From Spizellomyces punctatus DAOM BR117 (Eukaryota): a DNA stretch of 64,000 nt. Location of the stretch: NCBI GenBank assembly GCA_000182565.2, contig KQ257463.1. One strand, given 5' to 3'. This document shows, in pieces, positions 23,393 through 29,904 of this stretch. The position numbers and the translations under genes were made by a program. Every line of letters begins with the position of its first letter. Within the stretch, counting starts at the first letter, position 1. The notes beneath the pieces were generated by a model. That model saw only the letters and a list, made by a program, of their open reading frames with translations. It was not told the origin of the DNA and did no database searches.

Positions 23393-24611
23393 ATGTAAGG
23401 AATCATCGGTTGGTTGGGGCATTATTTTTGTACGAGTGAGATTCAGTATTGGATCTAATGGTCAACTTTAGGGGGAAAATGTGTCAAATCGTCATGGGGC
23501 CAGCTGGAAGCGGAAAGGTATAATCTTGCATCTCATACCATTCAATTACTCCAAAAGTGATTGACAATGTCTGGGTGTGGCAGTCGACATATTGCTCAAC
23601 AATAATGACTCATTGTGAGACGATAAAACGGACGGTACACCTTGTTAATCTCGATCCCGCCGCAGAGAGATTTACGTATCAACCAACAATAGGTAACAGC
23701 TTTGGGCTAGACAGAATTCACATGTGGGACGCCAACAACTTGGATCTACACTGTGAATGAGACTAGCGACAAGACAGACTCACTCGCAACTCCCTGCAGA
23801 TATCCGAGATCTCATCACACTCGAAGACGTTCAGGAAGAACTTGGATACGGCCCGAATGGTGGACTCATATACTGCCTCGAATTCCTCACAAACAACCTG
23901 GACTTTTTAGAGGAAGAGCTTGGCGACCATGACGATGACTACCTCATTGTTGACTGTCCCGGTCAAATTGAGCTGTACACACATTTTCCAATCATGAAGA
24001 CAATAGTGCAGGCCCTTCAACGACTGGATTATAGGGTCTGTGGAGTATATCTATTGGACTCGCAATTTGTGGAAGATCCTAGCAAATTTTTTGCTGGGGT
24101 CATGAGCGCCATGAGTGCCATGGTTCAATTGGAGATACCACATATCAATGTGATGACTAAAATGGACTTGATCGACAAGCGGCATAAAACCCAGGATATT
24201 GAACGGTCTGTTGCATAGATCTGTAGCATGAAGGAACTTGCCGTATGCACACTCAACCTGGCTGTTGCTTGTTCGCAGATACCTCTACCCAGATCCAACC
24301 CTCCTCCTGGAAGACGTGAATCAAAACACCCGACCAAAGTTCCGTGATCTCAATGAAGCTCTCGTACGACTGGCAAGTGTCTCCACTCTTACCTTACTGT
24401 ATGCACACAAATCACATCTGATTCTTTCCACACCTGACAGATTGACGAGTACAACATGGTAACATTCGTCCCACTCAATATCAAGGACGAAGAGTCTGTT
24501 GAATTGGTTCTATCACATGTGGATAACGCCATACAGTACGGGGAGGACGCAGAACCAAAAGAGCCAAAGGATATGGATTTTGAAGACTGGGAAGGACAGA
24601 GCGAAGACTAG
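23393..24611 (+). CDS. GPN3: GPN-loop GTPase 3
   Basis: [90 protein letters not shown]. Confidence 0.96.
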
Positions 24612-24912
24612 GAAACAACCGCACATCCATTTCATGTTGCCCAGCTCGTAGAGTTGTATATAGCATTCTTGTAGATAGGTTAATGATGATCATTAAGCAT
24701 TACATAGTTGAACGGATATTCGCTGCCTGACATGTACTTGAAACAAAAAAATCACAACTTGGGAGTTTGGGACACGACCGGAACCCGACTGGCACTTAAC
24801 ACACACAGTTTTAAAAAAATTAGCAAATGGCCAATTCTTTTTTTTGTCCCCTTCTATCTTTTCGACTGACAGCATCTATCTCTCAAATGCTCCCAACATC
24901 CCTACTCACTAC

Positions 24913-27900
24913 TCACCCCTTCTTGGACATGTATTCTTCAATCTTTTGAACAGGCACTGCTCCCTTGCTCAATTCCCATCCAGCTTTGATTTCTGCTACT
25001 TCCTCGTCTGTTATGATGAGGATATTCCTGGGGTCGTCGAGAATGGCCTGGGCGTCTTCGTCCGCTGGGGAGCCGCTTTTTTGGCTGCGTACATGGACAC
25101 TGAGTTTCCGTCGTTCAGGAGCAGAGAGAGCAATATATGTATCATAAAACTCTAGCAGGCTGTCTTGGGTGACACATTTGACCTAAATACAAGAAGAGCG
25201 TTCAATTCTGATTCACATCAGTCAGTCTTCCATCAGCGACATACCAAATCAGCATCTTCAATGTGCTGCTCAAAATTGTAGTACCGCGAAGAAACATGAG
25301 TCCACAAACGGTGTGACTCTTGTCCCAAGTTCTTATCTTTCTCCAACATTCGCGCGGCTAGGGCTGCTTGATGCTTTGCATATTCATCTGCTGTCAGTTT
25401 GCTAATGACAGACTGTAACGATACGCAGTAGATGAGTAACGGTATGTTATCGAATACGCAGCAAATGTACCAACCCGCATAGATGCCAAAAACGAGTTTA
25501 TCCTGCTCTCGAGGTACGCTGGGTCTTTTTCGCTTTGAATGATCACCCTGAATCCCATTATTCCCGTCGACTTGCGTAGACCGCTAAACACCATGTAACC
25601 TACACGAATTTAGGATTCTCGTTGGTATCCGCACCAGCCCTTGATCGCCGACAGACACTTACCAAGCTGCTCTTTTGTTCTGAGCTGGTCAAACGCGGGC
25701 TCATGCGCAATTTGACTGAACAAGTTCAGCTTTGCTCGTAGTTCTGCATCGGTGAAATCGCCCACCTGAATGTAATACTCGATGGCGGAATTGACATTGT
25801 CGGCGTTTGGAACATCACGCACATGTATATATGATATGCCTGTAAAAAATAATGCGGTTAACATATGCTTTGAGCTTTTAACGGATACACATGCGTACCA
25901 GGAACTAGAAGCTGCGTGCGCATGGTCTGTGCGCGCTGGAATAGTGGAAGGGCCTTTGGATGGAATGCGTCTTCGACAATGGACACCAACTTTAGTGCTT
26001 CCTAATTACCCGCAACCAACGACAAATTGTGAATGTTGTTCATGGTTAACGTATCTGACTCTCACAACCTACCTCTTCTTCAACATTTCCATGCACCAAC
26101 CCTTCAATGTGCATTTGTTCAAGCAGATGCGGGTAGAATTCTTCCACTTGCTGAGGCGTGATGCCTAGATATCAATGATAAGACAAATCGCCCCATTTGC
26201 AAACATGAAATCTAGGTATGCCAACCATAAAGTTCAACAAGCTTTTCCTCATGTGTCCACAATTTCTCTTGCGTCAAGTAGCTGACATAGTAGATTGCAT
26301 GCTGATGTGGTGATTCCATTGCCCAGTTTTTGTACGATCTGCACACCTATAAAGTCCAGATCTGGGTAAGCGTCATCGTGCATGCAAGTCAAGCGTATAA
26401 ACATTACTTGTTCACTAATGAATTTGAATCGTTCAGGATCAGCCTTGAGATTCTTCATTTTTTCCACAATCTTCGTTAATAGCGTCGGGAGCTTATCATT
26501 GTAACCCGCCAAAACGAGCTAACAAGTATAAAAAACTGAGTATGATGGGTCTAGCAAATGTACTGGCTTCTCGGCTTACTTACCACCATGCCGTCCGTGT
26601 TGTTGTCCAAACTATATGATAGTCCCGCAACTTCCGCGTAGTAAGAAAATTCATTAAGTGCGTCCTTGAGAAGGTCAGTATAGAGTCTCGACAGCGTGCA
26701 GCTTAGCGGTGAGACATAGGACAACGGGCTTGAAGACAGTGCACGTTTAAATATAAATCATCAGCATTGAGGGCGTCCAGTATATTCGCACCTCTTCAAT
26801 TGGAACCAGAGATTTGCCTTGGGAACCCAAAACGTGTCGTCTTTCTTATGCCACATTCGGGTAAGAGGCGTCTCCTTGATGATGTGCGCAGATCGCATTT
26901 TCTGTTGATCACCAGAAACAAACATCAGAATCTGAAGAGATGACCCATACGAACAGCAAGATCCCAACCTCTTCAACATCAAAGCGTCGCACATCAAACT
27001 TCTCAGGAATGAACTCGTTTCGGCTTGGTAAATGCAGTTCAGCATTGTGACCGATATTGGCCAGTGCCTTTGCAAATGTGGGTTAGTCTCGGCTGTAATC
27101 ACAATTTGCAACAGGCTAATCGTACCTGCTTCAAGCTTTCACTGAAGTCTTCGACTGTATACTCAGTCCCGTACCACTGCGCTTTTGAGAAATTAGTAGT
27201 GTCATGATGCGGAGATACCACAGTCAAACTACAAGGAATCATTCCGCGTAAGTATCACTGCCGTAATATGGCTAACATGAGAAACAAGCTCTACCGGAAA
27301 TTGTCTGGTCGCAGGTAACTAAGACACATGCGAACTTTCTCTGCGTCGTACTGATGCATCAAATAGGGACCCGACAAAATGTCTGGAGCATCGTATCTGT
27401 GCATGTTTCCAGCAACACGAGACGCGTAGGATGCCGGAGGGGACTTTTCTTTAAAGCGAAATGTCATTTCCGCCAATTGCTTGCACTACAGTTTTGTGAG
27501 CAATGGTAGAGACGTAACAGTCAGCGTGACTGCAGACAGACCTCGTGGTAAATCCAAGGTTGGACCCCATCTTTCACCACCATGTTGATATACTGGAAGA
27601 CGATTGGGACAATTTCCTCGTAATGTTCTAAAGATATATGATTAAACAGCTTAGCGTGTAGTTGATTTGGCCCGTTACTCACCGACGCCAGACAAGGTAA
27701 GGTCTATCGAGACCTTGAAAAAGTCAAAATTGATGCCACCATGGGTGACTCCAGCGGACAGCGCCAAAGCCCAACCTATACACTCCAATGAGATACCTGG
27801 ATAATATGGCCCAACAGTAAATCTTACCTTTCTTCTTGAGCAGGGAGAGAAGTGACCCTTCACCCTCATGTCCGATCAGATGGGCTAGGTACTTACTTGG

Positions 27901-29904
27901 CTAGAGGCAGCCAGAAACTTCATAAGCAGCAAGCATGAGAGATGATCCCTTGCATTGACAAACGTACTTGGACTTTGTAGTACGGCTGGGTATCAGGAAA
28001 TGGGAATGTCAATTCAAGATGACGTAGTTCCTTTACTGGTTTGATCAGCACTTGTTTCTGGTAAAACGGATGATCTTTAGGTTCGAGCGATACACATGGG
28101 TGAGCAAGTACTTCCAATCTCCTACCCCTAGTTCCGCAGCAGTGAGTGGATGTCCTTCAAAGGACGGTACGTCAATGGCCTTGTTTTGCACCGCGGAAAA
28201 TTTCTCAACAGCCCATTCAGCTAGCTGATCCAGGGGCTCTGGTGGTAGAGGTACGCGTCAGGAAGAAATTCGAGGGATGGCAAAACGATAACGATGACTA
28301 ACCTTTTCCCAACAATACGAGCTTCATTATATTGGAGCTGTAATACTTGCTGTGGAAGTCTAGCAATATTTTGCGGATGTCGAGGCCTTTTGACGCGGGG
28401 ATGTCTCGTAGAGTCTCCAGATTGCCTACATTAAGTCATAAGTCGATCAATTCGCAACCTTGCGAGGTGTCATCCATTCACGAGCATTACCGGTTCCAAA
28501 CTTGCGGTAAGGATGTTTTTCGTTCGACAAGTCTTTCTCAAGTTGATAAACTCGCCAGTTATCGGAATGCAGATTCTTTTTGTGCTCTAGTAGGTCGGCA
28601 ACGTTAGCTTTGATCCTCAAATCAATATTCCCACCCACGGCACCGTTCCATACACACCCGAGTCGACCGCATTCATTTCACGCTCAGTGCAAGATTCGGA
28701 GAATAAGGGGCTGATGAAGAACTGAGCGAATCTATACAAAAAAGCGTCAGTAGCGTTCTCCGCGTGATTCTGTCCTTCTTGACATCAGGCATACCGATCC
28801 AGGGCGCCTTCAAAGTGATCGGATGTAACCTCGAAATAATAATCTGCACAGGTTCCACATGAACATCATGTAGCGGATACACCCTTTTATGCAAAAAAGC
28901 TCATACTTGTGTTCTCAACTAAAATGAATTGGCAATTAGGAATATGGGAGGAACGAGACGCCCGGGGATTACAGTATTATCTCACCAGATGTGAATGCGT
29001 TTGAATATCCACCATGTTCAGAAAGATACTATAAAATATGGCACGTCGGGTAAGCAGCAGATTCTACATATTATGAGCAGGCTTTGCAGCTAGGCTATCC
29101 AACCTACTTGATTGTAATCGTTTTCCACTGGATACTACAATTATAAACAAAGAGCATAGTTTATTGGGATGACCCACGGAAGTTGTGATCCCCGCAAATA
29201 GTTTACCTTCTCTGTACCCTATATTGTAGTGAACAGTACACGCAAACATGAGTTCAAATAACATGTGAAACATCAAGGTTTGTCGGAAGAACGTCACAAC
29301 TGCAAATCCAAGTTGCCAACGTGATTGCATAATATGCGATTATGTCCACCGGCAACCTTTGTAATATCTGTGACAAGTATCTCAGAAGACCCTTCTCTTA
29401 CCATGAAGACTGGATGTCAAGATTATCGGCCCGAGTTGAAAGACAGAATATGTTAGCGATCGGCTAGAACTGAATCATTGCGTGAAACTTGCTCGGCGGG
29501 CAGAATCTGGCCATGCTCTATACCAGTACGACCGTACCAATACATTGATTCCAGCATCACCACCAAGCTGCGCTCATTTACACCAGGATCTGCCGCGATC
29601 AGTACATACGCAAGTGTTCGCAAAAATGCGCCAACCCAGCCACATCGTCAGGATCACATAGATGGCCCACATGAACATCCAGCGCCGCAGAAGACTTGTC
29701 CGTATGTGGGTCAGATATCAATAAAGCTTGGAGGTTGTTTTCAAGTGTGAGCATGCGGTATCCTCTATCATCTTGGTCGGGTTTGAGAATGTTGTCGAAA
29801 ATGGAGTATTTTGCACCCTCGGCACTAGCATTTTGGCCAGAAACTGCTTGCGTCGCTTGTGCAATATTTGGGTCTGTTGGCAAAGAAGGTGTATTGGACA
29901 CCAT
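24913..29904 (-). CDS. IDE: Insulysin / insulin-degrading enzyme (M16A metallopeptidase, Ste23-like); a possible extra terminal exon reaches 24752
   Basis: [38 protein letters not shown]....GLAHFCEH (HxxEH), [54 protein letters not shown]. Confidence 0.96.

Follow-up and report, generated by a model that had tools for sequence, protein, structure and literature searches.

Can a single insulysin gene of a chytrid supply its protease to both the cytosol and the peroxisome? The question is raised by the 3' end of a minus-strand gene in a stretch of 64,000 nucleotides from Spizellomyces punctatus DAOM BR117 (contig KQ257463.1), referred to below as the window. The stop codon of this gene lies inside a consensus 5' splice site, and splicing from that site would extend the protein by a short tail ending in PKL, a tripeptide that resembles a type-1 peroxisomal targeting signal (PTS1). 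The original prediction, made from the letters of the DNA, held that retention or removal of this intron moves the enzyme between the two compartments.

An insulysin gene with a stop codon inside its last splice donor

Judged by its sequence, the gene is a 26-exon-class M16A peptidase of the insulysin/Ste23 type, whose extent on the minus strand, counted from its initial ATG up to and including the PKL-isoform stop, is 24752..29904. The inverted zinc motif HxxEH is present as HFCEH in the first exon (translation of 29904-29602). Using as tblastn queries a protein of Spizellomyces sp. 'palustris' (P0001) and a Phlyctochytrium arcticum model (P0002), colinear matches were obtained from 29904 to 24916, covering residues 1-968. 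Both queries carry Peptidase_M16, M16_C, M16_M and PqqF-like C4, the four-domain architecture of about 1000 amino acids. In Pfam, the exon translations of the window matched Peptidase_M16_M (PF16187) at 6e-18, and a match to PF22456 was below the curated cutoff; the last exon alone matched no Pfam family. The zinc motif, the Pfam match and the colinear alignments uphold the earlier naming of the gene as an insulysin.

The last constitutive coding exon (24917..25182, minus strand) holds 88 codons plus GG, and its unspliced reading ends in ...EEYMSKKG. The C-terminus of the 'palustris' protein, with which it shares 97% identity, likewise ends in ...EEYMSKKG. A splice-site model placed 21 introns of 52-71 nt (median 63) in the gene, with loose GTNNGN donors, CTNAN branch-like motifs and the acceptors TAG (14 introns), CAG (five) and AAG (two). 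As a separate observation, the 'palustris' model and that of Borealophlyctis (P0005) lack a stretch of about 30 residues following HFCEHL which is present in other relatives; the corresponding small exons lie in the window at 29134-29108 and 29028-28981, and comparison of the sequences indicates that these exons were probably missed in the two models.

On the minus strand, the gene ends in ATG TCC AAG AAG GG/GTGAGT, so that the TGA of the unspliced, major mRNA (24913..24915) sits inside the donor GTGAGT (24916-24911). The donor is part of a tandem duplicate of seven nucleotides, GTGAGTA GTGAGTA (24903..24916), of which the junction reads described below use the first copy. If the second copy were used, the stop would be kept in the exon; no joint from it is listed among the RNA reads of run X10. 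The alternative intron that begins at the first copy is of the GT..AG type and spans 24795..24916 (122 nt, with an RNA joint) to an AAG acceptor, or 128 nt if it is taken to a CAG ending at 24789. A branch-point-like GCTAAT, of the same CTNAN type as in the gene's other introns, is found at 24819..24824. The AAG ending at 24795 is the first AG past this motif and is also the acceptor used in the reads, and the second possible acceptor, TGCCAG (24789..24794), follows 6 nt downstream in the same frame. An A8 run, a possible site of oligo-dT mispriming, is located at 24838..24845.

The coding part of the mini-exon (24752..24794) completes the glycine codon, after which 24793-24752 is translated as ASRVPVVSQTPKL followed by TGA; the PKL codons are at 24763-24755 and the stop is at 24754-24752. 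When the coordinates of the stop in its donor, of GCTAAT and of both acceptors were re-derived, the predicted positions proved exact to the base, and the translation agrees with the earlier statement that the AAG and CAG acceptors share one frame and one stop. Every AG lying 30-500 nt downstream of the donor was also enumerated. Acceptors at 80, 122 and 128 nt lead to the PKL ending, the first of these being an in-frame AAG at 24837, for which no joint is listed in X10. None of the other acceptors in the 30-500 nt range yields a PTS1-like end. The spliced isoform, with PKL before its stop, fits the pattern (S/A/C/P)-(K/R/H)-(L/M/I) and the unspliced KKG does not, which means that only one isoform encodes a PTS1. 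The last 14 positions of the spliced-form tail hold no acidic residue.

At 122 nt, the terminal intron is almost double the length of every other intron of the gene (52-71 nt), and it uses the rare AAG acceptor. Its donor, branch-like and acceptor motifs are shared with the other introns, and its splicing signals can therefore be regarded as normal. Folding of the RNA of the intron region gave nothing notable (z = -0.87), and a scan for bacterial promoters and terminators gave nothing useful, the models being bacterial and the host eukaryotic.

A C-terminal extension could in principle also arise from readthrough of the TGA with no splicing at all, and readthrough-derived PTS1s are known in fungi (PMC4207609). 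At this gene, readthrough would add VVSRDVGSI before a second stop is reached, and this sequence does not end in a PTS1-like tripeptide. This explanation was rejected, and we give it virtually no chance of being right.

How often such an arrangement would arise by chance was estimated from the sequence itself. TGA falls within GTGAGT in 30 of 2351 TGA trinucleotides (1.3%) on both strands of the 64-kb window. For a PTS1-like tail reached from any AG 40-200 nt downstream, dinucleotide shuffling gave 209 cases among 5000 shuffles (4.2%), and pseudo-donor by phase trials in the window gave 13 among 180 (7.2%). Multiplied together, the two chances amount to some 5-9 in 10,000 TGA-ending genes. Each feature is unremarkable singly; the pair is rare, although a genome should still hold a few such cases by chance. 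These frequencies bear on a reading that takes the junction for splicing noise, produced by the occasional use of a cryptic GT..AG pair in the 3' UTR; PKL would then be coincidental, and the enzyme of this lineage would be confined to the cytosol. The ease with which shuffles and pseudo-donors produce PTS1-like tails is in its favour. The placement of the stop exactly in a consensus donor, and the fact that each of the three acceptors at 80-128 nt leads into the PKL frame, count against it. Since exact junction reads are at hand and the family is so often PTS1-tagged, the functional reading is considered the most likely one, and splicing noise is rather unlikely.

Two mRNA forms in the RNA reads

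X10 is a raw-read RNA run with the same species label. Its reads are stranded and at most 60 letters long, and roughly 6% of the run yielded 713 reads that were placed on 24350-25550. They pile up where the two convergent genes of the region have their 3' ends. A joint 24794/24917 that skips 122 nt, CT..AC on the plus strand and thus GT..AG on the strand of the gene, was found in four reads with three different starts, all of them sense and with a shorter side of up to 24 letters. The junction had been predicted to run from 24916 to either 24795 or 24789. The AAG joint is borne out by these reads, and no joint to the CAG at 24789 reached the listing threshold in X10.

Reads that retain the intron, whose presence beside the junction reads was part of the same prediction, are in fact the majority. 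The sense depth is 76.5 at 24924-24964 and 57.2, 40.7 and 27.8 across three bins of the intron. It is 9.4 at 24760-24800, 13 at 24719-24759, 17 at 24678-24718 and 2.6 beyond 24677, so that sense reads run past the PKL stop to about 24680, and the 3' UTR of the long transcripts can be placed at 24680..24751 (minus strand). With four junction reads against a depth of 28-57 through the intron in this one run, both mRNA isoforms are present in vivo and the spliced form is the minority of transcripts in X10; a rough estimate from the reads would put its share at 5-15%. The arrangement in the DNA, the two forms of RNA and the exact junction between them were thus observed directly. With four reads from a single 3'-biased library, the support from RNA is thin, and such a small minority is also what splicing noise would leave behind.

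The opposite view would be that the PKL mini-exon is a constitutive last exon of a mainly peroxisomal enzyme, and that the unspliced reads stem from priming on the A8 run or from pre-mRNA. The library has properties that lend themselves to this view. Its short reads are 3'-biased and cover the gene over the last 450 nt or so, with a depth of 0-0.34 over 25183-25244; no constitutive intron is covered, and hence there is no internal yardstick of splicing efficiency. An extra A, indicative of slippage, occurs at the A8 run in 7 of 40 reads, and if the library was oligo-dT primed, this run could inflate the reads upstream of it. However, the depth of 27.8 at 24801-24841 lies downstream of the run, and priming on A8 cannot be its source; this depth is several-fold above the four junction reads. 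The length of the intron, twice that of any other, and its rare AAG acceptor also speak against this view. Although the family seems to have borne a PTS1 ancestrally, a constitutive PKL exon is regarded as improbable.

In the region of the mini-exon and its 3' UTR, the sense reads of X10 differ from the window at three positions: 24744 (four of seven reads), 24752 (four of seven) and 24764 (three of seven). The antisense reads differ at none of them (0 of 26, 0 of 32 and 0 of 17, respectively). The change at 24752 would turn the PKL-frame stop into a Trp codon, and as the stop would thereby be lost, it can be counted in favour of splicing noise. These variants could come from another allele, from a paralogue or from a mixture of strains.

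The antisense reads belong to a convergent gene on the plus strand (23757-24833), a GPN-loop GTPase (PF03029, 4e-50) whose stop codon is at about 24609-24611. Its 3' UTR (24612..24833, plus strand) is seen in the RNA reads: ten molecules in X10 end at 24833, and the plus-sense depth is 0 after 24841. Some 150 nt of it run antisense to the insulysin 3' UTR, and it lies over the whole PKL mini-exon, the acceptors and part of the intron. RNA from this locus was also met in a root metatranscriptome (X1), in which a 256-letter contig matches 24459-24714, at the 3' end of the GPN gene, with one mismatch. A near-identical chytrid was therefore transcriptionally active in that root sample. Two further data sets, X4 and X5, were rejected as RNA evidence because their contigs contain introns and are DNA-like.

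PKL and the C-termini of the insulysin family

In mammals, IDE bears a PTS1. The literature consulted lists Ide as one of the three proteases of peroxisomes. That PKL in particular is a PTS1-like tripeptide had been stated from the outset, and this is well supported by other organisms, as far as the consulted parts of the sources go. In Histoplasma, mNeonGreen bearing -PKL alone is imported into peroxisomes (PMC13343957). The Histoplasma Ste23 (G217B_1478) natively ends in PKL and was enriched 2.7-fold by peroxisomal TurboID with an adjusted P of 1.2e-4; this enrichment was seen in PEX+ cells and not in pex5 or pex7 mutants (PMC13343957, Tables S2/S5). The Arabidopsis peptidase PM16 (At2g41790, family M16) is listed with PKL as its PTS1 (PMC3355810, Table 1), and the same tripeptide is used by AKT3 of Alternaria (PMC9104257). 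Ste23 is not mentioned in Yifrach 2022 (PMC9513677). The use of PKL by peroxisomal M16 peptidases of both Histoplasma and Arabidopsis speaks against a coincidental tail.

To place the chytrid ending in its family, a set of 120 fungal homologues was collected with the C-terminal 349 residues of the 'palustris' protein as the query. A PTS1-like C-terminal tripeptide is found in 58 of the 120 by a broad pattern, which was written after the list of homologues had been viewed, and in 35 of them by the strict pattern [SAC][KRH][LM]. The endings are SKL (25), ANL (8), AKL (5), AKI, SKI and PKL (3 each, PKL being that of P0118, P0116 and P0101), PHL, AHL, ANM and SHL (2 each) and SKM, SRI and TKL (1 each). 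The remaining 62 proteins have no PTS1-like end, and many of these are from Mucorales and end in IDF or IEF. A PTS1-like end in half of the fungal homologues again argues against noise, and the family context supports a real, if still putative, targeting signal at this gene.

The closest relatives give a more divided picture. Three of the eight have a PTS1-like end, namely Geranomyces (AKI), Fimicolochytrium (TKL) and a Logan ORF, P0121 (AKL). Five have none in their protein models: S. 'palustris' (KKG), P. arcticum (SKK), Powellomyces (KAV), Borealophlyctis (MKQ) and Gaertneriomyces (DSV). This implies that members of this clade can live with an insulysin that stays outside the peroxisome, and the five models are a point in favour of the noise reading. 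P0121, the one match in a search of proteins of 'near' length, shares 63% identity with the P. arcticum model, and their similarity breaks off four residues before the model's stop. From this comparison, P. arcticum may have a similar hidden PTS1 exon that is not annotated. Its model ends in ...ASGVGSKK. NCBI places the species in Chytridiales; by its insulysin it is about as close to Spizellomyces as Powellomyces is (70 and 71%, respectively).

Wider searches for the tail were also carried out. An exhaustive comparison of the last exon with representative proteins gave 21 matches, none of them Spizellomyces-like with a tail, and a pattern-based metagenome scan returned 597 matching stretches and no relative. 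When the metagenome scan was run with alignment A1, one locus (L001) was found; this is the 3' end of a distant, intron-free insulysin with an SRF end, and it appears uninformative for the question of the mini-exon.

Probable dual targeting and its possible reach

Taken together, the explanation that we hold to be probable is that one insulysin gene gives rise to two mRNAs and, through them, to dual targeting, with the product of the minor form being peroxisomal via PKL. Most transcripts would keep the 122-nt terminal intron, and their translation would stop at the TGA inside the donor. The product ending in ...MSKKG would have no targeting signal and presumably be cytosolic. In a minority of transcripts, 24916..24795 would be spliced out, by which the stop is removed and 13 residues ending in PKL are added. 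Pex5 would then read this tail as a type-1 signal, and a fraction of the protease would enter peroxisomes. Plausibly, splicing is inefficient owing to the unusual length of the intron and its weak AAG acceptor. By analogy with the systems above, PKL would work as a PTS1 in the chytrid too; the enzyme would be localised in both compartments, and the ratio of the isoforms would matter. The switch between peroxisome and cytosol that had been proposed at the start is partly supported: both RNA forms occur, and the regulation of their ratio is conjectural.

Alternative splicing that yields a PTS1 is an established mechanism in fungi, as had been assumed, going by the consulted parts of the literature. 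Cryptic PTS1s are made in this way in GAPDH and PGK of Dikarya (Freitag et al. 2012 Nature, cited in PMC4207609 and PMC9549241) and in the 6-phosphogluconate dehydrogenase of Candida (cited in PMC4207609), and in Yarrowia MDH2, two 3' splice sites serve the same end (PMC3372373). The chytrid gene probably belongs to this class of cryptic PTS1s by alternative splicing. As in the Dikarya cases, which give a cytosolic and a peroxisomal enzyme, one gene has two mRNAs whose coding regions diverge at the 3' end, and the PTS1 is on the minor form only. However, the Dikarya cargo consists of enzymes of central metabolism in an ascomycete or basidiomycete, whereas here it is a protease in a chytrid; and dual localisation is known in those cases, while the chytrid insulysin is known here from its sequence and RNA. 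In contrast to the choice between two 3' splice sites in Yarrowia, a terminal intron is either kept or removed, with the stop lying inside its donor.

The Ste23 of Histoplasma and other insulysins of Pezizomycotina, which end in PKL or AKL, are of the same M16A family, and Ste23 shares the very tripeptide. Their PTS1 is constitutive and stands directly at the end of the ORF, whereas that of the chytrid can only be reached after splicing. Arabidopsis PM16, again with PKL, and animal IDE are likewise M16 peptidases listed as peroxisomal, but their signal is constitutive and their lineages are distant. No published description of the arrangement in the chytrid insulysin was found in the literature searched.

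Beyond dual targeting at this one gene, a broader scenario may be considered, although as a whole it is speculative and rather doubtful. The clade would have passed from a hard-wired PTS1 (AKL, AKI or TKL) to a splice-gated one; the relatives without a PTS1, i.e., S. 'palustris', Phlyctochytrium arcticum, Powellomyces, Borealophlyctis and Gaertneriomyces, would carry unannotated mini-exons; and the antisense 3' UTR of the GPN gene, or the stage of the life cycle, would set how much splicing takes place. If this transition is true, the making of cryptic peroxisomal targeting by splicing would date back to early-diverging fungi. Dual targeting at this one gene, if true, would already widen the range of such targeting, known for metabolic enzymes in Dikarya, to include a protease and the Chytridiomycota, and the trick would look either ancient or easily re-invented. 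It would also show that automatic gene models, which end at the first stop, under-report peroxisomal proteomes. The locus itself, combining a donor that contains the stop, an intron of 122 nt and a tail of 13 residues, offers a compact chytrid module in which these ideas can be tested.
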